A DNA stretch of 64,000 nucleotides from Amoebophrya sp. A120. Taxonomy: Eukaryota; Protista; Dinoflagellata. Of the stretch, positions 6,301-64,000 are shown piece by piece; the first letter of the stretch is position 1, and the number at the start of each line of letters is the position of its first letter. Under the pieces are notes generated by a model. That model did no database searches. It saw nothing but the letters and a program-made list of their open reading frames with translations, and was not told the origin of the DNA. The position numbers and the translations under genes are program-made. The stretch lies in assembly GCA_905178155.1 (NCBI GenBank), contig CAJINV010000011.1, positions 134,154 to 198,153 of the forward strand. Direction: 5' to 3'.

Positions 6301-6492
6301 GCTATGCTCTTCCCGAAATTGGGAAAAATTCTAAAAACGGAAGTCCCCGAGCCCGGCCTCGGGGTCGGGAGGAAGGTCTCGGGGCCGGGGCCCAAGCCGG
6401 GCGACCAAGATGGCTCTTCCCGAAATTGGGAACAAATAGCAAAGCCGCGTGCTATGCTCTTCCCGAAATTGGGAAAAATTACAAAAGCTGCA
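3322..6492. repeat. Tandem satellite array: ~150-bp monomers becoming a homogeneous 293-bp dimeric higher-order repeat
   Basis: Near-identical ORFs recur every 293 bp (4377, 4670, 4963, 5256, 5549, 5842, 6135), with 150-bp spacing at 3.9-4.35 kb. Each monomer has two TCTTCCCGAAATTGGGAAAAA motifs and a GC-rich half. Confidence 0.97.
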
Positions 6493-6589
6493 GTTGTTTT
6501 GAATACAGTCGTAATTTTGATACGAGCAAAAAATATTTTCTTCAAATCATGTTAAAGTGCGTGTTTTTGGAGCTGCAATTCACATGCAC

Positions 6590-9345: not shown

Positions 9346-11114
9346 ATCTATCAGAATCAGTCAGATTTTTCGCATTACATATTCATCAAGTGAGCAGAGC
9401 ACACGCAAATACAAATGTACCTGGTATGCCATACAAGGTACAAGCTGCTTCTCGTGGTGGAGCACATGACGCATTAAATAAACATGACCAACTAGTCCAC
9501 CGACACGCCTAGTAAATTGACACTGGCTGAGAATATACGAAGATGAAGTATTCTAATTCTTGGTAAATTTGATGTCAGATAGAAAGTTGCAAAAGGCACC
9601 TTAGGATGTCATTGGGCTACTAACTTAATCTCAAAGTTCATGCAAAAAAAGTGAAACACCCGTCTTTCGATTTGGTTGTGTCCACAGATGACACGCCCGC
9701 TGAAGAGAAAGAGAACGGTTACTTATCATCTGTACCGTATGGCAACGCCGCTGAGACCTTTTTCGCGTTCAGAAACTTTTTGTCGTCGCCGTCAGTCCTG
9801 TCCCGGACGACAATGCCAATGCTGTCGTGCGGACGGATTTTCTCCTGCTTGATCGTGTCTTTGCCAGCATCTGAATCCGTAGTCTTCGCTGGGGCCCCCG
9901 TCCCAAAAACAAAATGTTTCGAGATCCGACGCATAAGACCTGTTTCCGTCAATCAAGAATCGCAAGAACAAGAAATTTCTGTACTAGAGAGATTGCTCCC
10001 CTGAAATGACCTGCTACTTAATCCTTTCTTGAAATGTTTGGTGTACAAATGCATCGCTATCAAGCAAGCAAAACGTGTGTTGAAACAGATAATCATTTAT
10101 ACAGAAAAATTCCTTGTGCAGCCGTGCATCTGTCGACGTCACTCCAAGATCCAAGCGTAATTTCCAAACACGGTCACCGTGGTTGATTATGAAGGGCACT
10201 TTCTTGTCGAGTCCCGCGCGGACGAGAGACTGTGTGGACTCGACAGAGGATTTTGTGATGGTAGCCTCGCTGATGCTTCTGGGACCCGAACCTGGTTTAT
10301 GCGGTTTTTCCTGGTTTATTGACAACGCAAAACAAGATCTCTGAAGAGGTTTTTTCTGCGGGCGACGGGACGTCACAAAAGAAGTCCTGCATGCTGCCAT
10401 TAGCATCGTCCTAATCATACTACTTTGTGCCAGCGCTGAAACAGTATTCAAATGCGTACTTATCACAGTTAATAAGTACCAGCATCTTTCGGCCCCGGGG
10501 CCGCGGAGTTGGCGACTTGGTCATCAGCCCCGCCACGGCTCGGCATCGACAGCGCAGATCCACCGGCGTCGTGACCACAAGATCGTCCAACGAAAAACTG
10601 TCGCTCAAGCGGGTCTCCAACCTGAATAGTCGTTTTTTTCAGTCGTAGAGGTCTAGTTAGGAGAGAATGCAACTTGAAAATACTGAAAGAAACCGTCGGA
10701 AGGATGAGTAATTTTCGAGAGAGCCACTAGCAATACCGCGAGCAGTTCGACGATGAGGGTCCGGTAAAACGACTGGAAGCTGCTTTCGCTGAACACCACG
10801 TACGAGTTGTATTTTCTTATGAAGAAGTAAAAATATCATGTCCAGGTCCGGTTCTTTTGAAATCACGACTACTTGATGCTCCGTATTAGACGAGCTTCCC
10901 TGTGAAGATCATGAAAAATCTAGTCTACCACCATCCAGCAAAGAAACACAAGGAAGGCGGTTGTAACACTAGATTTAATTTTTTGCAAGAAGGAGTATCA
11001 ACAAACATGCATGCCCAGCGTCTTCTACACACGACTGGCGCCACGATGTCTGTATTAGATTAGAGGATGCAACCCTTCAGTGGATCAAGAGCAGTGACTG
11101 CAGGCCTGGCATCT

Positions 11115-14100
11115 TCACCCCGGGCCCGGTAATGAGTATTTACCGAGGGCACTTTGAATGTTACTCAAAGAGCTGTGAATCGCGCCGTCCACCTGCTCCT
11201 TGTAGATCGTGTCAATGCCGTCACCCGCCAAGTCCAGAAAATTCTGTGCCCAGTGCGTCCAGGTGTTGTAAGTGTTGACCTCGTCCGTGGCTCGCTGCAG
11301 CGCGAGGTCGTCGAAGAGCGGCTGCAGGCGGTGAGCGGCAATCTTGCCAACCGGGGTTGACTGCGTTCGCGTGATGGTCACGGACCGTTGCAACCGTTCC
11401 TGCAGACGCGGTTGCAGTGTTCCACAAAAGTCCAGGCCGTACGGCAGGATTGTCTATCAACTGCAAATATGTCTTGGTCTGGAAGGAAAGTGCCCTTGTT
11501 TGTCATGCATCTTTTGGACCACGGTCACGTAAATGGTCTCTCAGGTAGATGCAAGCATCAAAAGCATTACAAGGTTTTTGCAGGACTCTAGATGCCTCTC
11601 CTTGAGCTGGGCGCCTCAGATGAAAAAAGTCATCTGATTTTCTCTCAATTTTTTGAGATTTTTTTTTTTTGAAAAATTTTGGAAAAAAACGGTCTACTTT
11701 GCATTGGAAACAAAGTTGCTATTCACGTCGTTAGGTGCATTTCTATAGCGGTTTCGCCTTCTCATCTCATTTTTTTGGTCGAAACTGCATGGTATGCTGC
11801 ATCGATGCTATTCCGCATGGTATGGTGGTCATTCGACTTGTCGATCCTCCACCATACCATGCGGAATAGCGATCTAGCTGCTTCCGTCAGTTCCTTTTGG
11901 CCGTCGATAGCGTCGGGTTCGAAACCCGACGCTATACTGCTATCGCGACACACGACGCGACTGTCGTCGTATCGCTCGAAGCAGTATACCATGCGGAAAC
12001 GCATCCTCAAAGTTGTCGACAAAGTACACAGCCCGTGTTGGGCTGTGATAGGGTCTCCGCGGTCGATGACCGATGCAGTCCGCTCGGCCGTTTGGCCGAG
12101 CGGTTAAGGGGCCGAGTTGTTTGTCTCAGTCCCTTTTCACCCTTCGCGAGGTCGGGTTCGAAACCCGGCACTATACTTCTATCGCGACAGACGACTTGGC
12201 TGTCGTCGTGTCGCTCAAAGCAGTTTATCATGCGGAAACGCATGATCAAAAATGTCGACAACGTACACAGCCCGTATTGGGCTGTGATAGGGTCTCCGAG
12301 GTCGATGACCGATGCAGTCCGCTCGGCCGTTTGGCCGAGCGGGTAAGGGGCCGAGTTGTTTGTCTCAGTCCCTTTTCACCCTTTTTGCGATCGCCGGTTC
12401 GATTCTCGGCGACAAGTTTTTTTTCCGCGATGCGATCAGTACTATTTTCGTAGCATAGCGCCCAGGTTTGGATTCTTGTGTGTCGATGAGTAATCACGAC
12501 ACACAACAATCCATACGCGGATGTGCGGCGCAAATAAAATAGTACTGATCAACGTGCAGCTGTTACTCGATTATTTGGCTGCGAACTTTCGCAGCCAAAT
12601 AATACCGTCGACCCTCGTGTATTCGGTTTTGAGATACAGCTGCACACAGCGGAGGACTTTTACAGAGCTGCTACTTCGAAGGCTGAAGAGAAAAACGAAA
12701 AGTCTTTTGTCGATGATCATCGTGCTATGCATTTCGAAATGCATAGCACGACGATCATGTAGTACGGCAAAAGAGCTTATCGATTTTCCTTTCTAACTGT
12801 AGCGGGCTTGTGTATAGTCGGCTATTTTGTAAAAAAGGGAAACGAAACTGCACCTGTTCGCGTTCGCGTGAATAGCAACAAGAACTTTCCTCTGCAGAAT
12901 AGAACCGGGCAAGCAGTCGGCGCGGGTAGAAGAGGCAGCGGTAGGAAAGTGGTAGCGCGACCGGGCGGTGGGAGATACACACAAAACAAAAGCGCTCGCA
13001 GTGTCGCTGCGAGTAACATCTTGCGCCGAGAAGCGGCTGCGAACTGCAACTACATCTGCAATAATTGCAGGCAGTGTTCGGTAATTTTTTTGTCATGCAA
13101 GAAGCGACGTTTTTTTCGAAATACCAAACGAGCTGCTTTTTTGTGTGAGAAGAGAAGGCTGAGAGATTTTTTGGCTGCGCTATCAGGAGGGAAGGGCTGC
13201 GGAAGAGTGCCAGCACGAGAACGGGGAAACGCAAGTATTTTTTTTTGGAAATACAAAATGCATATTCTATTCTCCTACTAGCAGGCAGGTTTTTTTTTTA
13301 AACTAAGCAATACCCACATACCTAAGATAAAATAATTAATTTGCTAGCACGCAATCCCATCTAAGTAAAGCTATATAATAACAACTGCATCCGCATCTAC
13401 TGGCGCGGTCCTGTTCTTCCGCCGTCGTTTGTGTTTCCGCACCAGTTTTTCGGCGTAACAACACGGAGTAGGAAAATGGTGAAGAAGAACCAGGCGCCGA
13501 AGACAAAAAAGCAAGAAGAAGATGCGGCGGCGAAACAGAACGAAAAACAGGAGGAGCACGCGGCCTTTTTCAACTCGCAGTCGTACCTCGCTCCGAGGAA
13601 GTTGTGGAAACTAGCCGCACTGCTGGTCGAGACGTGTTTCGAGTTCAGCCAGACCTACTTCAACGACAGCAGCAGGCTTTCCCTCGTACATTATCGAGTC
13701 GAAATAGATGGCACTACGTGCCAAAACATGCTATTCGAGAATAGCACTCGCGGAAAAATAAAAGTGTTTGCCCACGTCATGATCAGCATGGTGGCAATAA
13801 CTTTTTGCTGTGGCAACATCGACAAAATGGGCTCCGTCTTCCTGCCATCACATACTGTGATGTACCCATCGAGCTACGATTTTGGACCACGACAACAAAA
13901 CCAAAAATCAGCATTCCGGGGGTACAGTGAAGCTTTTGAGGTGGCAGACCAGTTATGGACGTATCACTCGCCGGAAGTTTTTTTCAGTAACTGGTCGCAG
14001 AACACCATCAAAGTATGGTCGCCGGTTACGGACTCCGGCGGTAGTACAATCCCGACATTGTTTTATGTCGGGGGCCTGTTCATGGCGTCCAAGTACTTGT

Positions 14101-17100
14101 CCGACGTTGTACTTTGGACGCAACGCTGTAAAGTCCATCAAACCGCCCTTGTTACGAAGCAGGTTGCGGAGCTATACCTGGGGATGATGAACCTCGACCC
14201 GGTTGGTTGGCAAAAAAGGCTTTGGTTACAGGTATAGCCACGCAGTATTTGCTTCGTTTCTGCATGACAAATTTTATGACGTTCCGCATGACAAATGAAA
14301 TAATATGCGCATCAACATTGTTTTCTATATTTATCATCCAGGTTCACAGCATCAAGCTGCTGCAGGAGAAGATCCACAACGGCCTCGACCAGGTGGAGCA
14401 ATGGCTCGCTCCGTGGGACAAAGGAGAGAAACCACCCAAAGACGAGAAGCTGTGTGCTTTCTTGGACCGCCTACCGATGGACACGAAAAAAAAAGACTTC
14501 TTCCGGGACTGCAGTGTGCGGCAGAAGTTGCTCGTCATCCCGCGAAACAGCAAGCATCAATGCATGCGAGCGCTGCATTGTCTGTACCGCGGCTTCAAAT
14601 GTCCGGTCTGGACACGATGGCTGACGGTGATGTCGTGTCTGACGCAGCTCTCCCTGGCGACCGCGTTCTTCCTAGGAAGAATTTTTACGGGACTGGGCGA
14701 AAGAATTTCTTTCGGCCAAGAGAAAATCTTGGAGCATGGTTTTACGGTGGACATGCGCAACAAGACAGGTGCTACAAATACATAATATTGCCATGCATCG
14801 ACGGTTCCACAAAGTGCATGGTAGAAAAGCATGCAAATGCACATTTTTTCTCATGCAAAAATCATGCATTTTTGCCAATCCAGCATGACAAACTTACATC
14901 TTCAACTCATAACAAAATCAGGAACGCAATTCCTCTTCCTGGTGACGAGTTGGCTTTTGCTTCACTTGATACGCCCCATCGAGCGTTATAATGGTAGCAT
15001 GCTGCGGAGCAATGTTCGGGAAAAAGGGCGGGCGGCATTGAAGCAAACCTTTCGGGAGGATCTCGTCAGCACGTACAACTACTTCAGCGACAAACAGGCA
15101 GTGCTGGATGATCTGGCGTTTTTGATGTGCGGCATCGGGATCGGAAGTGTGACGTTTTCGGATGCGCAACTTGAACTGGTATAGAATAAAACAACCTTTC
15201 CATTTTGTCATGCACATTTTCCAGCATGACACGAGGACTGTTGAAATGCATATTTAGAATTAAAATGCAAAACAGATAGAGCTGGCGCGGATAAATGCAC
15301 AACACGTCCTCATCATCTCCCGCTGTATTCTTCTCTATCGCGACGGGCAGTGCGATCTGCATGAGACATGGTTGGGGAACGCGCGGGTCGACCTGAAGAA
15401 GGCCATGGAGCAGTTGGACAAGTGCAAGCTCGACGTGTACACGCAAGGGGATCCCGGGTCGATATCGCTTCATTCTGTACAGCGGTATATGCGGAATCTG
15501 CCGCAGAACATCCGCGAAGCGAAGATGAAATCCCTCACCGAATACCTCGAAGTTGCCAACCGCAGCACCAAAAACTGCGAAAAACGGGGTGGACGTTACA
15601 AGTGGCATACGAAGCGGCGCAAGACTGGAACCAAGAGTATCCCCGGAGTTATGAAGTGAAAATGTGTAGCATAGCTTTCTTGCATTACAGGTTTTTTTCT
15701 GAAAAGGCGCCACATACTACATAAGGCATGACGAATCTGTGCAACGACATGATGAGAACGCAACTTTTTGCATGCAAATTGCAGTGCTTTTTCAGTTTTG
15801 ATTTTTACTTGCAGGAGGCTATGTTACATATTTTCAACGCATACGACCGGACGCGCAGCTAAACAGAAAGGACTGGCAAAACATGGCTTCGGTGGTGGAA
15901 GAGGAATACCGGCCGTACTTGCTACCGGATCAAGAAGACGACGATACCGGCGAACCCGCAGCGAAACGGCACTACGCCTGCACACGACCGATAGATGCGA
16001 AACGGGAAGACCAGTGGGAGGACGGTGAAGAAGACGTGAAGATGACAGCGGCGGACGTGCTAGAAAAGTGTCACAAATTGAATTCCTGGAAGGACGACGA
16101 CGAAAAAGCGAAATACACCATCATCGCAGCGGAAATGGATAAGAAGAAGGAGCTACTAGCGGCGGAGCTGAAGTATGAGGATGCCGAAGAAAGCGAAGAA
16201 GAGGAGGAAGAAGTCCGGGAATTTGCTGTCGTGAACCGCGAGAAACTGTACTACGAAGGGGCGCAGGAACGAGTGCTGCAAAAGTACTTGACAAAAGACG
16301 GCGACTATCGAAAACTTGCACCCGCTATGTGCAACAGAACCAACCAGCTGATTACAGTGGAAAAGCCGCCGGAGGTGACGGTGCGGGCGAAAGTTAAACC
16401 GGCTTCTGCTGTGCTGATATCGCGTTTCATCCGGGCGAAGCGCGGTAAGCTGAAATCGCTGCGACAAGAGAAGAAGGCTGCTGGAATCGAACCCGGTGAT
16501 CTAGCTCACCTGAACCTCGCCGAGCCGGATGATGATGCTATCGAAACGCAACAATCTTATCCTGCGAAGAAACAGAAAGCTTCGCATGCTTGCATACAAA
16601 AACTTTGGCCTTCTTCGCAGGATAAGATTGTTGCGATCGATAGTCGACGACGAACTGCTGGTAGAAGACGCAGACGAAGTTGGGGAAGACGACAACATCG
16701 CGATGCCGGTACTGCAGGGGGTGCACGACGTGTCGTCGTTATTGTCGCCATTCTTCATAACGCAGTACAAGCACCGTCCGTCGGGGGAAATGCACACGTT
16801 CCTCATTTCAGACGTGGTGCTGTCTCCATCATCGTTCAAAGCGGTGCAATTAGCACTGCAGAAAGATCCGGGAAAGGAGTGGTGGCAGTGCAGGATGCGA
16901 ATGACCTGGATAAACTTGTACTCCGACGACCGCGGCACCGAATACGACCTGGATACGATGTATGCAACCAAAACATTGAAGCTACATGACAAGCATCACA
17001 AATGTTGACTGTTGCATTACAAAATTTGATTTCTTGTGCGCAAAACCTTTACATATTTCATGCAAATATCTAATGCATAGTAGTAATGCTTGGCTTGCAG

Positions 17101-20100
17101 CTTCAATGCTTTTCACGGGATACACTCGGGCCGATGTACACGATGAAAGTCGACGTAAAGGACGGCAGAAGCAAAGCGTGCTTGTTCTGTGGAGAACGGA
17201 TCAACCTGTCGTACCGGCAGCAGCGGACCAAGGCGGGAAAGGAGGAGGACAAGGTGCTCAGGGAAGGGTGGGCCTCCGCTAGCAATAGCGAGAAAGCCCA
17301 AATGCAGGACAACTTGGAGAAGTTTCTGCAGCCTACGATGCTGGCTTTGACCGCGCCGAAATCGACCGACAAGATCTGGGTTCTGGACGACAACAAGATG
17401 GTAGCAATGCCACTACAGTCGGATGACGTCCATGCGGAAACGTGGCGAAAGACGAACAAGATCGTCGTGGAGGAACCGCAAACGCAGGCTTCAACGCAGG
17501 TGGAAACGCAGGGCATGACTGCCCTTTCTGCGACGGCGAAGATGCACCTCTCGAGCAAGGAATACGCACTGCATCAGCTGGAGCGACAGAAGGTTGCTAA
17601 TCGTCTCTTCGCAACGAGAGTCGAAGGGTGGAAATGCATCGAAGCGTCGACGGTGTTTGACCGCAAGAGAACCGGAAGAGATGCTGTCCGACTGAGCATG
17701 AAGTGCGTGGACACCAAGCTGGCGAACAACATGAAAAAGCTCCTCGTCCACCCCTACCTGGACATGAAGTGCCAGTCGACGAAGAGGCCCATGAGGAGCA
17801 TGGTGATTGGCGAGAAAGAGGGACCCCTTTGGGTCGAGTGCCTCCAAAACGGGTGGGCCGTGATGTGCCGTATCATCTGCGAAAAAGCCAGCTCCAACAG
17901 CAAGTACGAACCGCAGTCCACCGAAGATGATTTGGAGGATTTGAAGTCCCAGTACGCCGCCTACACCTCGGAGATCCGTGCTTTTGCCGCCGAACGTGCT
18001 GGAAAGGACGCTACCAGGCAGAAGGAGTTCGACGCTCTGATGCACATTTCTGACCAGACCTACAAGTACCTCTCGCCCGGAAAGTCGACTACGTCGTGGT
18101 TGGATTTCCAGAAGATCGACGCAGAATACCTGGAAATCGCCGAAGTCCTTGTGGAGAAGCAGAGGATCAAGGCCAAGACCAAAAAGCAGCCAAAGATGGC
18201 TGCTGCAGGTGCGGGTAAACAGCATGATGTGCTCGCAGAATCGGCGTCCCAAGTGCCGGCCCAGTGAAGGTGGTCGGGCACCTCAAGTTGTAGTTGAGCA
18301 CACTTATATTCTGCACAGTTTCAGGTTCAAAAAGCATTGATTTATTGCACAATTCATCTCTCAAAGGAAATCTCAACTATTCCTCACAAAAAGTGGTCAT
18401 TTTTTGAGCTCAAAAGTGATCACTTTTGAGCACAAAAAAAAGTCTCTCGCTTTTCCTCCTCGAAGTCACCTTTTGCATCTGCATAGTCAAAAAAAAAGTC
18501 TAGAAAAAGGACTCACGTCCTACTTATATTCTCCATTATCGCGAGACTTTTTCGAGTTCACCTTCTAGAAAATCAGGAGACTTTTTTTTCGAGGTCAAAT
18601 TTGCAAAACGTCTCATTTTTCGAGTTCACTTTTGAGCAGAAAAAGTGATCACTTTTTGTGAGGAAAAGTCGTCACTTTTAAAGGATATCAGAAAATGTAG
18701 CCTTAAGTAGACAAGAAAACGTCAATTTGTAATGCGTAGAAGGTGTCAAAAAGAGCACTACTAGAACAAGAAAAGCTTAGTAAAGTAGTATATAGTAACT
18801 TCACGGCTGGTCATCGAACTTTGGCCCACCACGACTACTTCACCCTCGCGGTCATGCGGCAACGGAGATGGTCACCATGGACGAACGGATACCTGCGAGC
18901 CCTAGATCACCACCATGACGCGTTGACCATCTGCACCATGACCTTCGCCTTCTTGTCCGAGTTACCGATGGCCAGCCGTGTAGAATAGTGGTGTACCTGA
19001 CAGTAGTTTCATTGCAAGTAGTAGAATATAGTGCACAAATTGAATATTACATAGGAACAGCTGTAGACTTTAGCATCGCGCAAAAGACCTATATATAAGC
19101 CAGAAGCGTTGACAACTTTGCACAATCTTAACTGCGTAGAACGACCTTACTTCGTGTGAAAGTACATAACTTGTAATACAAACAGTGTACCTGTAGATGG
19201 ACGTAGTGCGTGACAGTAAAACCACACAGTAGTAGCATCATGCATACACATAGGGACATAGCGCAACTCTTCATGGGAAGTTGAAGCAGCATAGTACTGC
19301 TGCTTTGTGATACACAGCATGACAAATTAGTAGACTTCGAAGTGCATGTCATAAATTGAGTACGCTGGATTGACATACAAGAAGCATGACAGACTGCACA
19401 TGCAAGTAGTGGAACATACATAAAAAAAGAAGGCACTTCTCGAGTTGATATAGCACAGCATGCAAGTATGTCATAGAGGTAGAATTGCGCGCACAATACA
19501 GAAGTAAAGCAAGGTTTTTTTTTGTGTGAGTTCGGCGTCGATGATGGCGTTGTCGTGTCGTAAGCTTCAGCACACATAGTACTTGGTAAAAACGTGCTGA
19601 CATCATCAAATAAGTCGGCTCTTTGTTTTGTTTTTTTTTGTGAGAGATGAAGCAGTGCATTGTAGTGCCTAGAATGAGATGATTGTTGTTGTTGTAGTTC
19701 AAGTTATGGGATAGATCTGAGATCTCACTTTGACAGTGGTAATTGTGAAGAAAAAAAGGTGGTTGCTTTGATGATCTTGATGTTGTTTGGATACTTTCAC
19801 TTTACAATTTTGAATTTCTGACGCGCGCCATCTAATACTTGCTTTTCATCATCTTCATCAACACAAAACCCGTAGCCAACTACTTCTTGAGTTCTTCCTT
19901 TGTGGAGAGTTCTTCCTTTGAAAAAAAAAGCGTGTCAAGATGGCAAACAGATTGGCCCGTCACCCCACTGGAGAGGTCGCCCAGGAGTTTCTGCAGAACG
20001 CAGCTCTGCCGGTACACATTTTTGAACTTGTCATGCATAGAATGCCTTTATCATGGATGGGCAGACGCTTGCTGATGTGAAAAAGACATACTGTAAATTC

Positions 20101-23100
20101 AAAAAAATTACCACTACAGCAAGACGCGAATCATGTCGCTGCCATGGGTGCCCTCTGGCGTCAGGAAGGTCGCATGCGGACCCGTCTGATATGGTAGCAA
20201 TATCTAGCTCAGCACCTTACACTACTGCTTTGTCATGCTAACTATGATGCAAATTGGTCTCGACCAACTGTGCGACTACGTGCTTAATGCATGTGAAATA
20301 GCATATCTGATCATATGAGTTTGTCATGCGCTTTTGCATTTTTGAAGTAGCCAGGCATGCATGACGCGGCTGAGGTGCTGAGCTAGAGTTGCAACTTGCA
20401 TAATTTTTGAGTCGCGTCCAGTACCTTTCCACCCTGACTGACGCCCAGATCGGTAACCTCGAACTGGCCCACGAAGCCGTCATCGCCAGGTCCATGGCCG
20501 CGTTGCCCTCGGCGGTGCGTCAGATCGTGCTCTTCACGCGCACCGACATCATCGCCCGCGAAGCGGCCCGTTTGGGAAGGGCCGATTTCAATCATACTAC
20601 GCTCGAACAAGAACGTCGTGTGGCAGTACTACATCAATTTTGGAACTTGTGCATCACAAACTTGACCGACATGACAATCGCATGATGCTTTTGTGAAATA
20701 TGGATTTCTGCATGACAAAACTGCCATTTGAAGTGGAAATCATGGTCAAGAACCACGACTCAGGTCCATCTCCAGGGGAGATTTGCCTCCCTGACCGATG
20801 AGGCCAACGGGTTACGTGCTCTCGGCGTGTGCGATCGTCTGTGCGGTTTAATGCGCCACCCAGAAGCCCGTGATGAAGTGGAGCGCGCGGGAATCATCGC
20901 TTTGTTTCAGGGTGGTGCCTTCCAGCGGACCGCGGCCCGCCAGCCCCGGACCTTGGTCCAGTTTCGCGACTGGTATATTTGTGTGTTTTTGTTGATAAAG
21001 TGATGCTGTTCACATCGTAATCTTACGTCGGTCCATTGAAATCATGCTTCAGTGCCACAGAAAAACGCAACTGTAATTTCATGAGATACATCATTCTGAC
21101 AATAAAAAACAGGGCGTACGCGCAGGCCCGCGCGTTCGTGTCCGGCAACAACAACATGCCCGAGATCCGCGAGAACATGATGATGATCAGCAATGCGATC
21201 GAGCTGCAGCAGGTGTCTTTGCTGGAAGACGCCATCACCACCCAATTGCTGCAGGGTGCCCCCGTCAACGGCGGACAGACGCTCCAGGAGTTGTTCTGGG
21301 AGAAGGCGATGGACGTATATAGTGTTGTGCCTTTTGCAAAATGAGCGCGATTCATCGGTTGAGTCGTGTATTGCGTAGTCGGAAACTGACGAAGCAAAGT
21401 TTTTAGCTTCTATGCATGACAGAACTACTGTGTAGCGCAGATGACGAACAAAGCATCCAATATTGATAAGAAACATATCCTGAAACGATGAGCACGCATG
21501 TTGCATTTCATACTGCAAATCCACATCAGATGCTCCGCGCTGCCGCCGTGGCCGAACTGTTGGTCCAGGTGGAGATTCAGCTCGGCACCTTCTTGCGCAC
21601 CGGTAACGCCCAGTTCACCGTGTACGACGATGCAAAGATAAAACCTTGGCTCAAAGCACTGTTTTCTCTTTCAGATTTTACTCTGCATGCTATGCTCATG
21701 AGTTCGCGTGGTTGGGACTTGAAAAAAAGAAAGTGCTGCACTGTAAAAGTACCAAGAGAACAGGACGTCAAAATACAGTGGAGGAAATGCAAGAAGAAGT
21801 GATAAAAAAGTCGAAGAATGCACCCGTCGTGCACCTTTTGAAAGGAAAACAGTGTGTTGCTCCAAGGTTTTTTTCATAGCATAGCAAGGCTGACTTGACC
21901 CGCGCGCTCGACACTTCGCGTTGTGCTGAGGAGATGGCGATGAAAGCGATCAAGCGCGCGCAGGGAGAGGTGCCCCCCCAGCCGGAGATCCATGATTTGG
22001 TACTACTTTTTCATGCTGCTTGAGTTGAGAGCTATCACGAGCCGAGAGAGCGAACTTTATTGGTTGATAGAAAAACGAATCTTCCTGCATAACAAGTTTG
22101 ATACTGAAGTGCCAGCTTTATTGTCGTATAGTTTCGTCTGTAATTTCTACAATGCAAATCTCCAGGGCTTGATGCGTCAGATGGTCAACACTATCCGCCA
22201 GTGGATGAACCTGCCCCAGCCGCACCCGGTCATCACCACTTTGATCGGTTTGAACGACGCCTACACCAACACGACCTCGTTGTACTACACCAAATTGCCC
22301 GGCAACTTCACGCAGCAGTACAATGGTGCCTTGCGCCGCTACTTGTTGACCATGGACCAGACCCGCGTGGAGGGGCAACTGCGGGACCTCGACAACCGCA
22401 TCCTGGCCATTGGCACCGCTTTTGACTTCTTGCATGACTGGGACAACCGCGGATCGCAGCAGGAGATGATCGACTTGCACGCCTTCTTGGGTGGAATCCG
22501 CTTTCCCGCCCGCAACCGCTGGCGTTCCCTGCACGAGATCATGCGCGAGATGTGCAACTGCTACACCGGTGGTGCGCACCAGGAGCATGCCGACCGCGCC
22601 AACACCATGTTAGCGATGAAGGAGGATTTGGAAGCGCGCCTGTTCACCGAGTACCCGTCCAACCAGGAGAAGTTGAGTGAGACGATTGAGAAGTTCGTCC
22701 GCCGCATGCAGGAGTTGGAGGAGGGTCCGTTGCGGATCGCTTTGGCGAACGGTATACGCACAGAAAATTTCTTGGTTGTAAGCAATTAGAAGAACGACCT
22801 ACTGCATGCAAGACAGATTGGTTTATGCAAAGCAAAAATGAGCATAATACTATGCGAAACTGCATCTACAACATCAAGCCAAAAATAATATCAGGATCGT
22901 ACCAGGAGTCCGACCAGGCTTACAACAGTATGACGGTGCCATTCAGTTTTCTCTTTCCCGCCCAGAAGCAATTGCTCTGGCGTGAGATCACCCGCCAGAT
23001 CCCGAACGGTGCCGACCCGGCCGGTGCGAACGCCAATCAGCCCGCGCCCCAGAGACGCAGAATCAACCTCCAGTTGCACGTGCCGGGTGGTGCGCAGGCC

Positions 23101-26100
23101 AACGAGAACGCCCCCATTGCCAACAACGCGGTCGCGGGCGGATCCGATGATGAGGATGAGTAGTTGGACGGATAATTTTGGCCGTGAAAGTTGTTTGCAA
23201 TAGTCGCACTTTACATACCAATATTTGCTGCTTCATCACCGTCGGTTTGATCGACCAGAGGATACTACTCAAGCAACTTTTACTAGGTTTTGATTGATTT
23301 ATTGTTTCGTACTTTTTATACTTCGAAAATGCACAGTTTCATCTTGCCACAAGTACATAATAGTAAAAGTATGGACCAGTAAGTCAGTCAGTGAATCAAT
23401 TTGTCGGGGACTTAATGATATTTGTAGGCTTCAATGTTTTCGTAAAGAACTCACTGTTCCTACTGGCAGGAGGCCCATATCCAACAGTCTCACACGTGGA
23501 GGAGGGAATAATAAATAAAGCTCAACACGTAAATAGGAGCGGGAACAGAGTTGTTAATCAAAAATAATATGTAAAATTTTTCTGTATAATATATCAAAAA
23601 CAACTCTGTTATGGTGGATGTGTGAGATGTTGGCGCAAATGTAAAATTCCTCCTTTGTAGAAATGTTCTACTTGAGTTCAAGCAGAACCATCTACAGAAG
23701 GAGGGGGGAAATTAAAGTTTAGTTATAGAGTCGACGTCCAGCTAGTTGCTGCTTTTTTCCATCTTTTCTACATAATGTTCTACTTGTTGCCCATGACAAA
23801 CTTTGATGAAACACGATGCAAGACATGAATGCACAAGTCGGTGAGAACGTTGTCGGTGTAGATCACAGCATACAAATGAAAAGTCGGTGATGAACCAGAA
23901 GCGCATGTGTAATATCGGTGCGACTATACAGAGTAAAGAAAAGCGCGATCGGTGTGACAGTTGCATGCGTGCAGTGCTTTATGCAAGCCGCCTCCCCGGG
24001 CGGGATAGAAATTCGGGAGGCTGTAGTGTTTACTATAGAAAAAGATAGTCGTGCCTTAGCATACGCTGTAAAATAGCCTGCTACTACATCACGCCAACAA
24101 TAGAATGTAGTTTGAACTTTGTGCTGACGAGCACACCGGATCGGGCCGTCGGGCTGCACCGCGAATTCAGTGCCGACGGGGCTGCGATGTGGAGATGCGA
24201 CTGTGGATTTTGCGAATGTGGACGCCGCGACCGCAGCGTTGGAATTTTTTGAACCCCCATCGGTTCCCATCGCCGCGTGAGCGGAGATTTGCGGTGGAGC
24301 GAGCGAATGTGGATCTGCGATGTGGAGCTGTGGAGCGGCGATGTGGATCGGCGTTGGCGAGCTGCGATGTGGAGCCGCGCGGTGGACCTGCGATGTGGAT
24401 TTCGCGACGACAACCTTCGCTTCCCTTGAACCTTTGGTGGTTCTCGTGGCGGCGTAGACGGATTTGCGGCGGCAGGAGTGGATGCGGAGCTGCGATGTGG
24501 ACTTACCGGCGGTGGCAGCGAGATGTGGAAAGCGGAATTGCGGCGTTGAGCCCGACTGCTCCGCCTGCGAACGGCGATGTGGATCCGCGATGCGACGACG
24601 CGATGCGGAGTTGGCTGCTACGGAGCCACGAGCGGAGGCTGGAGTGCGGATTTGGAACGACGGAGGAACTTCCGTCCGCCTTCGCAAACTTTGAACCTCA
24701 GGTGGTTCCTATCGCAGCGTGGACGAGCTGTGGTGGCGGCGTGGAGCGAATGCGGATTTGCGAATACGCCAACCTTCGTTGTGGCGCGGACGACTGGAAA
24801 GTGGACGTCGAGATGCGGACGAAACAGCGGTGGTGCTGTTGGATCTGCTGCTTGCTGCCGACGGATGGAAGTGGATTTTTCCTCCCTTCTACGGAAGGTT
24901 GAGCTTTTTTTCCCCGCATCGACCCGCTCTACATCATGAATCACAATCGGGTTTTGCGGGTTCCGAAGTCGCAACGAGGACGCGGTAAAAAGACAGCTGA
25001 CGGTGGAGGCGGGAATGCTACGCGGCGATGCGGAGTGGCGAGACGACGGACCCGGGCGACGTGCAGATCACGATGAAATACATAATTGTGTAAGTACAGT
25101 AAAAAAAAAACGGGATTGCGTGCTAGCTAGCTCTATATCTATCACCACTCCTTGAAAAAAAAACGCGAACACAGTAGCACTACGATCTTTTTATGTCTAA
25201 GCATTGATGCAGCTATTGTATATGTTCATCTCAACCAAAAAAACAGGTGATGACTCGCGGGCAAGTGCAGTTGAAATACTGTTGGCGTGATGTAGTACTG
25301 AGATACGACTGACGGCAGTCACAAGCAGGCTCTCAAAGCAGGCCACTTCGCACCTGCAAACATCGACTTCAAAATTTTTTTTAAAAAAAAAAATCTAAAA
25401 AAATCGGGAGAAAATCGTGGACGGGGTGCCATCTGAGCGCGCCCAGCTCAACTCTCCTGCATGAGAAACAAGGTCCGAGCACGGGGACAGAGTCCCCGTG
25501 CGGCGACCTTCCGGCATTTGTCTGGGACGAGTTCGGGGGCCATGGTGGATGGCACCGGGCAGGCAGGCCCCTGCAACCCGGCGTCTCTGTGTGGCCTGCG
25601 CCCCCTGATCCGCGACAGATCTGCGGACGGAGCCCCTCTGTTTGCCCACACTAGACCCGTTGGCCTACCGCGAACAAAGAGAACAGATGAAAGGAAGAAG
25701 CTGGCGCCGGATTTGTAGCTGGCCCCTAGGTCATGACGCGGGGACCGAGTCCCCGCGCTGACCTAGGGCCTTTGCCCCTGGGCCGTGCGGTTAGTTTCCG
25801 GGAAGCGCCCAAAGCTGGCCCCTAGGTCATGGCGCGGGGACCGAGTCCCCGCGCTGACCTAGGATGGGCTTTTGCGCCTCGGCCGCGCGGTTAGTTTCCG
25901 GGGAGCGCCCAAAGCTGGCCCCTACGTCATGACGCGGGGACCGAGTCCCCGCGCTGCCCTAGGGCTTTTGCGCCTCGGCCGTGCAGTTAGTTTCCGGGGA
26001 GCGCCCAAAGCTGGCACCTAGATCATGACGCGGGGACCGAGTCCCCGCGCTGACCTAGGGCTTTTGCATTGCCCTCCGGCCGTGCGGTTAGTTTCCATCC

Positions 26101-29100
26101 GGGACGCGCCCGAAGCTGGACCCTAGGCCATGACGCGGGGACCGAGTCCCCGCGCTGACCTAGGGCTTTTGCATTGCTTGCCCGTGGGCCGTGCGGCTAG
26201 TTTCCGGGAAGAGCCCATAGCTGGCCCCTAGGTCATGACGCGGGGACCGAGTCCCCGCGCTGACCTAGGGCTTTTGCATTGCATGCAATGCTTGCCCGTG
26301 GGCCGTGCGGCTAGTTTCCGGGAGGAGCCCATAGCTGGCCCCTAGGTCATGACGCGGGGACCGAGTCCCCGCGCTGCCCTAGGGCTTTTGCCCCTGGGCC
26401 GTGCGGTTAGTTTCCGGCCGGGAAGCGCCCAAAGCTGGCCACGAGGTCATGACGCGGGAACCGAGTCCCCGCGCTGGCCTAGGGCTTTTGCGCCTTGGCC
26501 ATGCGGTTAGTTTCCGGGAAGCGCCCAAAGCTGGCCCCTAGGTTATGGCGCGGGGACCGAGTCCCCGCGCTCACCTAGAGCTTCTGCCCCTGGGCCGTGC
26601 GGTTAGCTCCCGGGGCGCGCCCAAAGCTGGCCCCTAGGTCATGACGTGGGGACCGAGTCCCCGCGCTGACCTAGGGCTTTTGCCCCTGGGCCGTGCGGTT
26701 AGTTTGCGGGAAGCGCCCAAAGCTGGCCCCTAGGTCATGACGCGGGGACCGAGTCCCCGCGCTGCCCTAGGGCTTTTGTCCCTGGGCCGCGCGGTTAGTT
26801 CCCGGGGAGCGCCAAGAGCTTGCCCGTAGCTCATGACGCGGGGACCGAGTCCCCGCGCTGACCTAGGGCTTTCGCGCCTCGGCCGCGCAGTTAGTTTCCG
26901 GGGAGCGCCCAAAGCCGGCCCCTAGGTCATGACGCGGGGACCGAGTCCCCGCGCTGACCTAGGGTTTTTGCCTTGCCCGTGGGCCGTGCGGCTAGTTTCC
27001 GGGAAGAGCCCATGGCTGGCCCCTAGGTCATGACGCGGGAGCCGAGTCTCCGCGCTGACCTAGGGCTTTTGCCCCTGGGCCGTGCGGTTAGTTTCCGGGA
27101 AGCGCCCAAAGCTGGCCCCTAGGTCATGACGCGGGGACCGAGTCCCCGCGCTGACCTAGGACTTTTGCCCCTGGGCCGTGCGGTTAGTTTCCGGCAAGCG
27201 CCCAAAGCTGGCCCCTAGGTCATGACGCGGGGGCCGAGTCCCCGCGCTGACCTAGGGCCTTTACCCCTGGGCCGTGCTGTTAGTTTCCGGGAAGCGCCCA
27301 AAGCTGGCCCCTAGGTCATGACGTGGGGACCGAGTCCCCGCGCTGACCTAGGGTTATTGCATTGACCGTGGGCCGCGCGGCTAGTTTCCGGGAAGAGCCC
27401 ATAGCTGGCCCCTAGGTCATGTCGCGGGGACCGAGTCCCCGCGCTGACCTCGGGCTTTTGCCCCTGGGCCGTGCGGTTAGTTTCCGGGAAGCGCCCAAAG
27501 CTGGCCCCTAGGTCATGATGCGGGGACCGAGTCCCCTTGCTGACCTAGGGCTTTTGCCCCTGGGTCGTGCGGTTAGTTTCCGGCAAGCGCCCAAAGCAGC
27601 TGGCCCCTAAGGTCATGACGCGGGGACCGAGTCCCCGCGCCGGCCTAGCGCCTTTACCCCTGGGCCGTGCGGCTAGTTTCCGGGGAGCGCCCATAGCTGG
27701 CCCCTAGGTCATGGCGCGGGGACCGAGTCCCCGCGCTGACCTAGGGCTTTTGCCCCTGTGCCGCGCGGTTAGTTTCCGGAAAGCGCCCAAAGCTGGCCCC
27801 TAGGTCATGGCGCGGGGACCGAGTCCCCGCGCTGACCTAGGGCTTTTGCCGGCCCCTGGGCCGTGCGGTTAGTTTCCGGCAAGCGCCCAAAGCTGGCCCC
27901 TAGGTCATGACGCGGGGACCGAGTCCCCGCACTGACCTAGGGCCTTTGCCCCTGGGCCGTGCGGTTAGTTTCCGGGAAGCGCCCGAAGCTGGCCCCTAGG
28001 TCATGACGCGGGGACCGGGTCCCCGCGCTGACCTAGGGCTTTTGCTCCTCGGCCGTGCGGCTAGTTTCCGGGAAGCGCCCAAAGCCGGCCCCCAGGTCAT
28101 GGCGCGGGGACCGAGTCCCCGCGCTGGCCTAGGGCTTTCTTGCCCCTGGGCCGCGCTGTTAGTTTCCGGCCGGGAAGCGCCCAAAGCTGACCCCTAGGCC
28201 ATGACGCGGGGACCGAGTCCCCGCGCTGACCTAGAGCTTTTGCCCCTGGGCCGCACGGTGTCCGGGAAGCGCCCAAAGGAAGCTGGCCCCCAGGTCATGA
28301 CGCGGGGGCTGGGTCCCCGCGCTGACCGAGGGCGCCTTTCGCCCCTGGGCCTTGCCCACGGGGCCCGGGAAGCTCGACAGGCTGGCGGCTCGCGTGACAA
28401 ACTGGAGTCCGGCATTGCGCATCTCGCGTGGCGAGGTCCCAAAGTGTGTCCGGGGTGTGGCCGAAAGTCTGCCCGGGGTGTGTCGGAAAGTCTGCCCGGG
28501 GTGTGTCCGGGGTGTGTCTGGGGTATGTTCGGACTTTTTGCCTGGGGTGTGTTCGGGGGTCTGTCTGGGGTATGTCTGGGGTGTGTCTGGGGTGTGTCTG
28601 GGGTGTGTCTGGGGTATGTTTATACCCCACCTGTTGCTTTTTCGCCAAAAATTTGTATTCAGGTCGTGACTGACTACCATTTGCATACCCCTGACACACC
28701 CCCGAACATACCCCCGAACATACCCCTCGCATGCATTTTTGACCAGCTGCTGCAGTTTAGATAGTAATTCCCCATTTGCGACGTAGCAAGGAGCGAGCAG
28801 CTTAGGGCGCTCCTCATGCAACACAAATGATTGCCGATAATTCTAATTCCAGAATCCGCATCACAAGTTGCAACCTTCCCGACACAGGTATATGTGCAAT
28901 GCGTATTGTCAGGCAGTGGTCGATTTCGCTTTCATCCTCCTGCGACTCTGGGGTCCAGAAAACCTCGGTGGTCCTCTGGATGCCGCCGGCCTCTGCGGGG
29001 GCGACAAAGGTATCCAATGCAAATGTATCTGAGTGGTCTGGAAAACTAGTGCAAAAATCTCTGTTGCATAAACTACAACCAAAAGTCGTCCACTTTTGGC

Positions 29101-32100
29101 CAAGTTTAGCGGCAGTTTCTCATGCAAGGGAGGCATGGGAGATGAGATCCAGGTCTCACAGAATCTGTCATGCTGGGTCCTGTATGCCAAACCTCACCAC
29201 GCGCAATGAAATACTAAAACCTGCAAGACAAGAAGTCTTGCAACCTTCCAGACACAGACACTATATTTGCATTTGATAGAAGGCCAGGGTCAACAGCTTG
29301 TAGTGGTCGGCGAACGTCGTGCTCCAACCATTTTGGATGTCGTAGCACACGACGCAAATGAGCAGCTCGGAAGACCGCGGCGTCGCGTGTGACGAGGGGA
29401 TGCTGGTGGAAGAGCTCATAATGCTGCTGCCCGCCGAAGATGAACCTGTTTTGATTTTTTTGGTGGGTGGCTGTCAGAAAGCACATCTTGGTCGGGCACA
29501 CGGTCTTCATGCAGAACAGCAACTTGTCCTTTTCGTGCAAATTCATGTGCAACAACTACACTGCCATTCCCATCGCTACTCTTGCGCGCAAAAAAATCGA
29601 AAACAGAGAAGTTCATCATCGTAAATAATATAATACTTGCTGCTCCTTCTACACCGCTGGAGCTGCCTCCGCCTATTTTATTATCGGGTTTCGCCGCAGT
29701 GGTCATTCGTACGCGTGACTCCCGCACGGCGGCCACGGATCGGAGTCCTGGTCGATAATAAGTCTTTATGCATTGCAAATATGTCTGAGTCTGCAAGAAT
29801 GCCAATGTTTGTCTATGCATTTTCTAAATCACACAGATAGTCCTTAATGCTCGGAACAACATCTTCACAGGTTTTGTGCAGGCCGTTTGATGCCTGTTCC
29901 GCATGAGAAATGCCCTACTGCTGGCGTAGACGTATTATTTAAAGATGGGCAGCTCATGCAAGAGCAAGACCAATGTTTGTGTGATCCGGTAGACTATGCA
30001 TCACAAGTTGGACGAACTCTTCGTCCAGACCCAGACATGTTTGCATTTGATAGTCTCACTCGGTAGGCCCGACGTCCTGTTGGATACAAAGCGAGCGGCT
30101 CGTTTGCCCTGCGCGATCGGCATCCACTCTTGAACGTCCAAGAGATGGTCGCTTTTTGCTGGGGAGAGCCATGTTGTCTGCACCAGCCGCAGTGGCGGTA
30201 CCGGAGTAGTTGCTCCATATTGGAGCGCCATCTTTTCAGGCTTGGGTGGGCCGCTCCGAGTCGGAAAAAAAATATGATTTCGAGACGACGCCGCACAACA
30301 TCACAAGGATGGAAGAAGAAGAACAAATAACATCCTCAAATTTTGAGGTTTTTCTGAAAAAGCTTCCTGTCGTACATCTACTATATCTCCTCTTCCTTCT
30401 GGTTTTACATTTGGCTGTTTTTCATCGATCGCTCGTGCCACAGACTGCAATATCTAGCGAGGGACACTAAGGACAAAGCTAACTTTGGAGACCATCTACT
30501 TGTGCGGAAAAAAAAATTGAGGTATTTTTGACAGATTTGCAATTTGGATTCCCAGCAACCCCCAACGCAAGATTGCCGTGTTGCGAGTATCCGGGAAAAA
30601 AAAAACAGCGTCCAATGCATCAAGATCATCCGACAGGCGTATTGGATCACACAAACGTACAGCCTGGCAGACTGGCCGGTGACCACAAATGTTCGGTGGC
30701 AGTGGCCGGCGACCACAAGTCTCCGCTGGCAGTTGCCGGCGAACACAAGTCTCCGTTATGTGAGGACTCTATGTGAAGAGATTCTAGTGCAGCTTCCCTG
30801 TTCTCTGTACTGATTTCTGTTCTGGATTAGACACTGGAGGTTAACTTGAGTACAACTCTGTTCTGTTTTCTGTTACCACGACGACCACTTCCGCACAGCG
30901 ACCGGGCGCTTGCAGTGGTGGCATTGCTGTTTATTTAATCCCTTCCTGTAAAGGAAATGGAAAAGGTTGTGACAACATCATTTTCTAACGCGCTACCTAG
31001 TAGTTCAACATCAATAAGATATTCGATCCGCCGGCTCGGCTTCGCTCCGAACGGAGGTCGGACATTAGAAGAAGAATAAGAGATGAGACTGTTCCCTTTT
31101 TGCTTTCGACCCTAACTGCTTCGAACAGAGAGGGCAACCGCGTTTTTGTAAATGATCCACAGTTCCTCGCAATAGTTTGCTAAACGAAAAATTTTTTACA
31201 ATGGACACATGAAAATCACCATTTGATTGGACGGAGCAAAATTTCCATTTGAGAAACAGAAACATTTAGTTAGTTAGTATTCCCACAGAAAACGTCACAA
31301 TCACCATCAGCAGAACCACCAGACGAAGGCAATGTATCACATGCAAATATGTCTGGGTCTCCTGGAAGAATGCAGATGTTTGCCATGCTGTTTTTGCGTG
31401 ACACGGTCATGGAAGGCCTGTCATGGAAGCCCTCGCACAACAGGTTTAGAGCAATGCCTGGTCTGCATGACAAATCTTCTATTTCGGCGACAGGAGATGA
31501 GCAACTTTTGCTGCCTATGAATAAGACCTCTGTGTATGTTGATGTCAATCATCACGAAATACAAGTTTGCCTTCCATCTCCAGATACCCAGACATTTTTG
31601 CAGTGGATACGATGTCTCTTGTACCGAAACCCGCGGCGGCGGCGAGTAGTTGGAAAAGTCCTCTCTTATCAGACGGAAAAGCACACCACCTACTGAGCAA
31701 ACAAAAGCAATGTAGCAAGATTCTCCCTGGTGTTCTCATTGGCATTGCATCGGCTCATGCTCGTGTCAGAAGAAGTGAAGTTTATATAGAAATGTGGACT
31801 TTGGTGTTGGTCATCTCATGCAGCAGCGAAAACCTTTGCTCGTTTAGTTGGACAGGCACAGAAGCAAGCCGGCCCAGAGTAGATTGCACGACATAGATCA
31901 ATAATCAGTGTTCCAGTATGCTTAGAGGAGTTTGTTTTTCCGGATAAGCTTCCGGGCAAATTGCGGACCCATGCAGGCAAAGCCCGTGTGCATCCCGGAT
32001 CTCTCACATAGGCCGTGAAAGATGTCGTCGCGGGGGGAAGTATGCATCGCAAAACCGTCTGAATCTGGAAGGGCGCACAGGTACATTTCAACATCAAGGA

Positions 32101-63466: not shown

Positions 63467-64000
63467 TATTGTAACAAGAGCACTATGCAACAAAGCAGGG
63501 GGTGCCACTGCAGCGACTACGATCTGCGTCGCCTGTGACTGATGCTCAACCTCAAAAGCGACGAATCAATATGTTTCTTTGTAGAAATATACCTTCAGCG
63601 AGAAACTCTTGGCGTACTGCTCCGCAGTCGTTATCGCGTTCGCGAAGAGCACATTCGAGCCAGACGACGATGCGCCGGATGCGCTTCTATGCATTGCAAA
63701 AGCATCGCTTCTGTACTAGTACAACAAGTTGCATACCCAATTTTTCTTCTAAACCCAGAGTCGAGGCATCTTCTTATGCTAGATCGCTTGGAAGGTTAGA
63801 TTTGTCATGCATGGTTGATGATAAGATTACAACGAGTTGTACAGGAGCATCACTTTTGCAGTGGATAGCTGCCGGCGGCACTGGATGTTGCACTGGATGA
63901 TGAGCTACCAGACGCCGACGCGGAACTAGAAGTCCCGGACGACGCTGCTGCTCCGGCCTGCAGGATGACACTTGCGCTCGACCCGGCCTGGTGCCCAGGG

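Follow-up and report, generated by a model that had tools for sequence, protein, structure and literature searches.

An intron of 17,456 nt in Amoebophrya sp. A120 is an ordinary introner enlarged by two inserts

Within the 64,000-nt window of Amoebophrya sp. A120 DNA analysed here (contig CAJINV010000011.1, positions 134,154 to 198,153), a gene on the minus strand contains a giant non-canonical intron, which is an ordinary Amoebophrya introner of about 300 nt enlarged by two inserts that lie 11 bp apart: a DNA transposon with a gene for a likely transposase, and a Helitron-like element (Table 1). We regard the nested anatomy and the splicing of this intron as highly probable. The best explanation overall, and in our opinion a reasonably probable one, is that of a nested, inflated introner across which the exons are joined and whose ends are marked by a terminal motif.

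Table 1. Features of the giant intron and its surroundings (positions refer to the window)
Feature	Position	Strand	Remarks
Host gene	6542..30231	-	15 exons, 1,063 aa; translation agrees letter for letter with P0001
Exon downstream of giant intron	11153..11454	-	mismatch-free in pieces of X3 and X6 contigs
Direct repeat ATTGTC, left copy	11449..11454	.	stays in mRNA
Giant non-canonical intron	11455..28910	-	17,456 nt; spliced contigs and exon model
Introner remnant 1, with TAT-type arm (intron 3' end)	11455..11601	.	sibling alignment; profile rank 1
DNA transposon, 13,850 bp	11602..25451	+	inverted ends, target duplication, extra copies
239-bp tandem duplication	11912..12383	.	among several subterminal hairpins of the transposon
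Transposon gene A	13476..18267	+	7 exons, about 1,330 aa, in-silico model
Family-like introner within gene A	15650..15843	.	arms 23/30 complementary
106-nt hairpin intron within gene A	16538..16643	.	TAT-type ends, -53.6 kcal/mol
Probable transposon gene B	20404..23163	+	several open frames; no family
Introner remnant 2	25458..25468	.	11-nt piece of the inner motif conserved in the family, between the two inserts
Helitron-like non-autonomous insert, 3.3 kb	25469..28767	-	ends uncertain by about 6 nt
Tandem array	25717..28333	.	26.6 copies of 96 nt; each a hairpin, then CTAG, on the minus strand
Introner remnant 3, with arm (intron 5' end)	28768..28905	.	sibling alignment, contig, profile
Direct repeat ATTGTC, right copy	28905..28910	.	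likely 4-nt target duplication plus flanking matches
Exon upstream of giant intron	28911..29006	-	X4 contig piece 28905-29006

The public Amoebophrya sp. A120 protein P0001, an 'unnamed protein product', maps to the locus across the 17,456-nt intron, and the 15-exon model that reproduces it confirms the uninterrupted frame which the first-pass annotation had obtained by joining the exons. The exon-exon junction predicted there is found in P0001 and likewise in spliced contigs: the exact join of 28911 to 11454 occurs in X3 and X6 (two samples of one study), in which 30 of 30 letters past 11454 match 28911-28940, so that the excision of the giant intron, previously put as a condition, is now supported. 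The X3 and X6 contigs also lack every one of the 10 downstream introns (8/10 being GT-AG), and in X4 (record length 3,885) the four upstream exons occupy positions 1-591, after which the contig departs from the locus at 28905. The spliced contigs are presumed to be RNA (their label 'RNA?' is a guess), all originate from one study and may be the source data of P0001, of which they are therefore not independent. Since the tandem array was masked in both read mappings, the giant junction is visible there as a loose end and not as a listed joint. This junction can slide by 6 nt, and in 0 of the 7 registers are the ends GT-AG or GC-AG; the introns of the host gene comprise nine with GT-AG ends and five non-canonical ones. 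The upstream exon, annotated in the first pass as 28911-29010, does start at 28911, but it ends at 29006 and reaches 29010 only by a 4-nt slide of that junction. The host protein matched no Pfam family, P0001 was the sole match among the longer proteins searched for host-gene relatives with a short intron, no relative was found in the JGI metagenomes, and no Rfam family was found within 11400-29000.

It could be argued that an insert-free allele in the culture is the source of the mRNA, or that the assembly has misplaced repeat copies; indeed, no contig among those listed bridges an insert junction, and both inserts are repeats where short-read contigs break. However, a mis-join would not create an error-free 6-bp duplication by which the family motif is re-established together with an intron of family size, the unique parts on either side are equal in depth (41.5 and 42.5), the assembly was built with long reads according to the available part of PMC7789003, and no joint among those listed in the DNA-like run X1 skips the transposon, which together make this possibility very improbable. 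We give hardly any credence to the idea that two gene halves are transcribed separately and that the arms mediate their joining in trans: dinoflagellates do trans-splice leaders (PMC7789003, available part) and contigs are blind to the difference between cis and trans, but nothing points to a start or an end of its own for either half, and the geometry of the cut is the same as in the short cis introns.

With both inserts removed, the emptied intron measures 301-307 nt, and its short siblings span 266-425 nt, rather than belonging to the class of about 250 bp to which the element had been assigned. It is 61-70% identical to 7/7 short members (56-75% among the members themselves), with alignment scores of 114-196 against shuffle maxima of 61-86, and once the transposon and one CTCTCC are deleted, the inner motif is whole again, with the 5-nt spacer that is seen in the siblings. 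In 4/4 family introns of the host gene (291, 273, 17,456 and 325 nt) the intron equals the arm span plus 5 nt, and the sibling introners of this gene are spliced in both orientations. The proposal that the giant intron is an inflated family member is thus borne out by the identity to all seven members and by the preserved relationship of arm span and intron. Orphan arms are present at both ends, as annotated, but the left one begins at 11455 and not at 11462; the right one ends at 28905, a base that belongs also to the direct repeat. These arms are 22/35 complementary and begin with TAT and TAC. The same ATTGTC repeat had been noticed outside both arms and is indeed found in both places; a 6-nt match at one given pair of sites has p of about 2.4e-4, and we infer a 4-nt core of the repeat, which would be placed as in the siblings. 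In the available portion of Farhat et al. 2021 (PMC7789003), A120 introner elements are described with the features seen here, namely inverted arms starting with TAT, a short direct repeat (3-5 nt) overlapping the boundary, membership of a repeated family and removal without GT-AG (for the giant intron from contigs of one study), in the same organism; unlike them, the present intron is 17,456 nt long and carries nested inserts and a likely transposase. The A120 families in the accessible part of Gozashti et al. 2025 (PMC12130899) are likewise short, of TIR type and mostly with non-canonical ends.

The larger insert had been recognised as a transposon of 13.85 kb, and it is indeed 13,850 bp long with CTCTCC on either side (6-bp target duplication at 11596-11601 and 25452-25457). 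Its inverted ends, 11602-11684 and 25368-25451, are imperfect (80% over 85 nt). The read depth of 96-117 vs 41.5, the breaking of contigs at 11602 and at 25452, and the occurrence of another right flank in X3 indicate that it is probably present in 2-3 near-identical copies. It therefore combines the inverted ends, target duplication and dispersed copies that characterise a TIR cut-and-paste transposon. A Polinton or viral origin was weighed on account of the size and the 6-bp duplication, and no support for it was found. Of the two antisense genes said to be spanned by the intron, gene A is corroborated by homology, whereas gene B is seen as open frames only.

Judging from its sequence, the product of gene A is likely to be an unclassified hAT-like DDE transposase. 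The candidate catalytic residues, in order D78, D186, C218xxH221, W345 and E582, were chosen by eye ahead of finding homologs; among nine homologs, D78 is retained in six, D186 in seven, C and H in all nine, W345 in three and E582 in two, the homologs without D78, D186, W345 or E582 being those that do not cover these sites. Members of the family occur in Amoebophrya strains A120, A25 and AT5. In an alignment-based structure model of the A25 homolog (pLDDT 53.5) the order of strands and helices would fit an RNase H-like fold with a helical insertion, and a fold search with this low-confidence model placed Hermes at rank 3 (E 0.30), with no match at Z >=8; the single-sequence fold of the gene A product was unusable (pLDDT 34). 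Searches with gene A revealed no transposase family in Pfam (below-cut-off rows only), weak unrelated rows only among PDB sequences, and no match in the longer-protein sets, viral contigs, metagenome contigs or Atlas. According to the available parts of PMC5225508, PMC4763223 and PMC12730594, the order D..D..CxxH..W..E with basic residues soon after E and the inverted ends are shared with hAT (Hermes, Kat1; hAT6) and MULE transposases, and the 6-bp duplication resembles that of hAT6. On the other hand, the 700-aa C-terminal extension, the second gene and the length of 13.85 kb set the element apart from hAT and MULE, and hAT6 has been described within an animal lineage.

Gene A would itself be interrupted by two hairpin introns, both predicted from frame and hairpin and from the A25 homolog P0008, which is continuous across 15650..15843 and 16538..16643; cutting the span plus 5 nt at 15650-15843 restores the frame. 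A stand-alone transposase of 607 aa ending at 15659 was considered and dropped, as the inner introner and P0008 indicate a single long gene. We disfavour a role of gene A in the splicing machinery, because strain AT5, in which 99.98% of introns are canonical, carries the gene A family too. The ends and the 6-bp duplication of the transposon differ from those of the introner family (family A), so that it is at most a possible mobiliser of that family.

The second insert accounts for a 2.7-kb hairpin satellite reported previously: the satellite exists, but not as a free-standing unit, and the array is the inside of a dispersed Helitron-like element (about 25469-28767). The element resembles non-autonomous Helitrons, as characterised in the available part of PMC8969392, in the lack of a target duplication, in the A|T insertion site (found under either right end, with the introner motif continuing across), in the 3' terminal hairpin (-33 kcal/mol) and in array units that consist of a hairpin and CTAG. 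It differs from them in its likely termini, TT and CTTG instead of the canonical 5' TC and 3' CTRR, and in having no RepHel gene; the 5' end reads TT if the contig-supported end 28767 is taken, and TC if the end is 28761.

The choice of the intron ends appears, on balance, to be led by the terminal motif of the family, and not by length or by strong pairing of the arms. A 20-nt arm profile, built from 23 other arms in this one window and run over about 17,400 positions per orientation, places the true 3' arm first (29.5 vs 14.4 for the next) and the true 5' arm also first, though narrowly (18.1 vs 16.4). Between the two ends no other arm lies within 10 mismatches of the 30-nt family arm; the profile scan, by contrast, detects a weaker inner pair at 15650/15843. 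Recognition by motif is favoured because the pairing between the arms is weak while the motif ranks both true ends first; nonetheless, pairing or bracket matching must contribute to some extent, because the 5' arm wins only narrowly and the arm at 15650 would be met first by scanning. We propose that the splicing machinery would mark each end by the terminal motif, whatever the length of the intron, that the upstream introners would already be gone when transcription reaches the far 3' arm, that in the transposon gene, which is antisense, the inner introner pairs would match up with each other as brackets do, and that both inserts would fold on themselves, so that the effective distance between the intron ends would shrink.

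In a hairpin model, already proposed for short Amoebophrya introners (PMC7789003, available part), the arms would instead base-pair directly, with the self-folding inserts looped out and the ancestral stem re-formed. In agreement with it, the element without its inserts has a folding energy of -97.3 kcal/mol (siblings -71 to -118), the transposon ends pair at -97.7 kcal/mol, and the self-folded 3.3-kb insert leaves just 13 outer bases unpaired. However, in a rough pairing test with duplex energies that leave out the tiles' own folding, the duplex of the 30-nt arms reaches just -16.2 kcal/mol and 177/867 intron tiles pair better with the 5' arm, the 138-nt remnants reach -61.7 and 136/247 tiles do better, and this 3' arm pairs more strongly with the 5' arms of upstream introns (-35.5, -25.3). 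We consider the hairpin model unlikely. Stepwise, twintron-like removal, in which the inner introners and the transposon are cut first to leave a much shorter intron, seems to us quite improbable: the elements all nest correctly, the arms of the inner pair at 15650/15843 read alike on both strands, and the inverted and direct repeats of the transposon reproduce the introner layout, but the transposon ends lack the TAT arm motif (they are outside the top six profile matches), the 3.3-kb insert has neither inverted ends nor a direct repeat, and no transposon-only joint is among those listed for X3 and X6, although contigs drop rare forms. The intron may be removed by a single recognition event over the full 17 kb, to which stepwise removal and looping-out are the alternatives.

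Transposons within introns are common in eukaryotes, and the giant intron is already contained in a public gene model, both of which limit the surprise; introners and long A120 introns have also been published. According to the available part of Farhat et al. 2021 (PMC7789003), more than 60% of Amoebophrya introns lack GT-AG ends, no U1 snRNA is detectable in A120, and the mechanism of removal is an open question; the analyses dealt with introns of 40-1,000 bp and capped mapping at 10 kb, and the longest A120 intron in Table 1 of that work, 35,152 bp, is given without its anatomy. The A120 rows listed in Dataset S2 of Gozashti et al. 2025 (PMC12130899, available part) include splice_3 values of 7,143, 13,922, 16,127 and 18,837, and in one row a satellite-bearing member of 6,806 bp is given; inflated introner members seem to be implicit there, the splice_3 values being read as alignment positions and not as intron lengths. 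The word 'nested' is absent from the accessible main text of that paper, and no paper on nested insertion in introners was found in the open literature searched.

In this locus the distance between the intron ends has grown about 58-fold and inner decoy arms have been added, and the cut is unchanged. It represents a natural experiment that constrains any model leaving the definition of the splice sites to a compact hairpin alone, and it provides exact junctions that can now be sought in nascent RNA. With the inner element there is now a likely transposase in a genome that had been reported to be devoid of transposases (PMC7789003, available part), an absence that served to exclude transposase-driven spread of introners. 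It is tempting to speculate, although we regard this as tentative and rather doubtful, that U1-less splicing pairs introner ends in the manner of brackets, whatever the length and the antisense genes between them, which would turn tens of thousands of introners into landing pads for transposons, one passenger being a recently moved, undescribed DDE transposase family (A120, A25, AT5) that would overturn the no-transposase view and reopen transposase-driven introner spread. That non-canonical introns may act as 'safe havens' for large insertions is a reading from this one locus.

Comparable arrangements are found in unrelated lineages. In the nonconventional introns of Euglena (PMC12501133, available part) the ends are likewise set by a short motif of complementary bases that stands at a fixed distance from the junction, this motif being unrelated to the present one. 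Fungal stwintrons, as described in the available part of PMC9024468, are also nested introns, but they are canonical and split a splice signal, whereas the inserts described here lie in the middle of the intron.

The first-pass annotation had claimed that an introner of the ~250-bp class, inflated to 17.5 kb, still frames a host gene, and the nested structure is confirmed; its splicing is borne out by an exon join in contigs and by a protein that reads through the predicted junction. That protein (P0001, 1,063 aa, an unnamed NCBI product of Amoebophrya sp. A120) is the only one of 133 candidates matched by the last-exon frame, at 100% identity, and it maps continuously across the giant-intron junction. 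Our model of the gene, built from contig pieces, translates to P0001 exactly; nine of its 14 introns are GT-AG and five are not. The giant intron is thus already present in the public gene model, which derives from transcript alignments according to the accessible text of PMC7789003. No Pfam family was found for P0001.

The stretch is contained in eight of the 11 sequencing runs listed, none of the eight being annotated as RNA. In X3 and X6, which are two samples from a single study, the contigs lack all ten introns downstream of the giant one, eight of which are GT-AG, and thus behave as mRNA. Past 11454, their next 30 letters are identical to 28911-28940. A contig of a further run, X4, carries the four upstream exons and departs from the window at 28905 with 3,294 letters remaining. 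The intron so removed measures 17,456 nt; its junction slides by 6 nt, and none of the seven registers offers GT/GC-AG. The spliced contigs all come from one study, possibly the same data that underlie P0001, three raw RNA runs contributed no reads, and the giant junction appears as a loose contig end, because the tandem array was excluded from the comparison. The joined exons could alternatively stem from mRNA of an insert-free allele, which we place third among four rival explanations; however, no joint removing the transposon occurs among those listed in the DNA-like run X1. Trans-splicing of two gene halves, which would likewise yield these exon joins, is placed last.

The giant intron belongs to a known type of element, the Amoebophrya introners, of which it represents an extreme, nested version. 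No further strong family arm was found between its two arms. Its arms, direct repeat and family geometry agree with the A120 introners described in the accessible part of PMC7789003. Emptied of both inserts by script, it shrinks to 301-307 nt and is 61-70% identical to each of the seven short family members tested, which share 56-75% among themselves. In all four family introns of the host gene, where both orientations of family A are found, the spliced-out length (291, 273, 17,456 and 325 nt) exceeds the span of the two arms by 5 nt. Such an excess is consistent with a duplication of 4 nt and one further base, and the ATTGTC repeat therefore probably consists of a 4-nt core extended by matching flanks. 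In the contig-supported 339-nt host intron, an AG sits 2 nt ahead of the end actually used.

Features of the giant intron, its host gene and the surrounding window
Feature	Coordinates	Strand	Remarks
Host gene (P0001)	30231 to 6542	minus	15 exons
ATTGTC copies	11449-11454; 28905-28910		
Giant-intron arms	from 11455; up to 28905		
Host intron	10814-11152	minus	339 nt; GT start, AA end; without family A arms
Insert 1 (DNA transposon)	11602-25451		13,850 bp; imperfect inverted ends; CTCTCC on either side
Gene A	13476-18267	plus	7-exon model, open over ~1,330 aa
Family-like introner in gene A	15650-15843		arms 23/30 complementary; frame regained by removing span + 5
Hairpin intron in gene A	16538-16643		106 nt
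Last gene A intron	16961-17079		short TATGCA inverted ends; frame kept by this or GC-AG reading
Inverted repeat between both transposon genes	18376-18669		44 bp, 89% complementary; possibly another small element
Probable second transposon gene (predicted)	~20400-23160		
Satellite	3323-6493		second satellite, of 150/293-nt units; starts ~50 bp past host stop codon
Probable foldback element	61516-63468		perfect 80-bp inverted repeat enclosing tandem repeats and a 659-N gap

Excising insert 1 in silico recovers the inner motif of the family with sibling spacing, and both 11602 and 25452 are break points of X1 contigs. Among the contigs listed, none bridges an insert junction; a duplication that restores the family motif would be hard to obtain from a mis-join. 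Long X1 contigs on the insert reach depths of 96-117 versus 41.5 on host exons, four of them show 54 mismatches to the window in 12,469 letters, and X3 carries its right end joined to a different flank. This suggests two to three very recent copies, although depth is no copy number. Spliced contigs contain little of the insert. The 69 X1 differences counted in it include 18 changes from A to T but not one from T to A, which may reflect faulty polishing of a collapsed repeat.

The satellite of 26.6 x 96 nt lies within a larger insert of 3.3 kb (insert 2). Contigs at its right end have a depth of 1,009-1,184 versus 42.5 and stop at 28768; the element is thus dispersed, with roughly 25 copies, and its end lies near 28767. 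It lacks a target duplication, is located at an A|T step and ends on the minus strand in a hairpin followed by CTTG, while each of its 27 array units has a similar hairpin followed by CTAG. Helitrons seed such tandem arrays. In the missing duplication, the A|T site and the terminal hairpin it resembles the non-autonomous Helitron described in the accessible part of PMC8969392, but under the better-supported end it lacks the TC and CTRR termini, and we therefore call it only Helitron-like. Across the whole window there are 34 instances of the word GCATGACAA and 6 of GCATGAGAA, none of them in the 3,192 exon bases of the host and 15 in its introns, 13 of these in the giant one; both inserts adjoin such a word, now stranded between them.

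Beyond the first-pass annotation, our analysis mainly adds a constraint on end choice and a likely transposase inside the intron. Direct arm-arm pairing in a hairpin is the foremost rival; the arm duplex (-16.2 kcal/mol) is surpassed by 177 of 867 inner tiles. The 138-nt remnant pairing is outdone by 136 of 247 tiles, and the 5' arms of upstream introns pair better with the giant-intron 3' arm than its own partner does. The ends are not singled out by simple pairing. In a 20-nt profile from 23 other arms in the window both true ends rank first, the 5' end narrowly, which together with the weak pairing favours motif recognition at each end. A terminal motif would be recognized at either end, inner arm pairs would close first, and the self-folding inserts may shorten the distance between ends. 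Motif-plus-spacing rules have a precedent in non-canonical introns of Euglena (PMC12501133, accessible part). Stepwise removal of the giant intron is the second-placed rival.

The product of gene A is very probably a DDE transposase. Its first exon has nine homologs among 1.84 billion representatives (two from AT5, three from A25, four unnamed), and the A25 protein P0008 aligns at 32% to model residues 195-1317, supporting one long gene. This alignment is continuous across the family-like and hairpin introns, for neither of which splicing was seen. Candidate catalytic residues were chosen by eye before the homolog comparison, and the D and E positions were compared with the Hermes numbering; D78, D186, C218, H221, W345 and E582 are conserved in all homologs covering them (6, 7, 9, 9, 3 and 2 of nine). 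CxxH and the tryptophan are common to hAT and MULE transposases (PMC5225508, PMC4763223), and hAT6 is defined by 6-bp duplications (PMC12730594), as far as the accessible parts of these papers go. No match was found in Pfam, PDB sequences or Atlas; in a fold comparison with a model of an A25 homolog (pLDDT 53.5), Hermes came third at E 0.30, with no Z of 8. Membership in hAT is a reading towards which we lean slightly. Of the nine listed differences from sister copies that lie in gene A exons, eight alter a residue; either drift of this copy or incomplete polishing of the repeat may explain this. The family also occurs in AT5 (P0002, P0003), a strain whose introns are nearly all canonical, and four environmental proteins without a name belong to it as well.

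The accessible text of PMC7789003 already describes A120 introners, gives 35,152 bp as the longest intron, analyses introns only up to 1,000 bp and reports putative transposases in A25 only. By our reading, Dataset S2 of PMC12130899 (41 of 58 A120 rows) already implies inflated family members. In the literature covered, which misses most subscription papers, we found no description of the nesting or of the gene A family. The earlier suggestion that non-canonical introns are safe havens for insertions is plausible, based on one locus. An X3 contig extends ~900 letters beyond 6550, and the host 3' untranslated part may enter the second satellite there.
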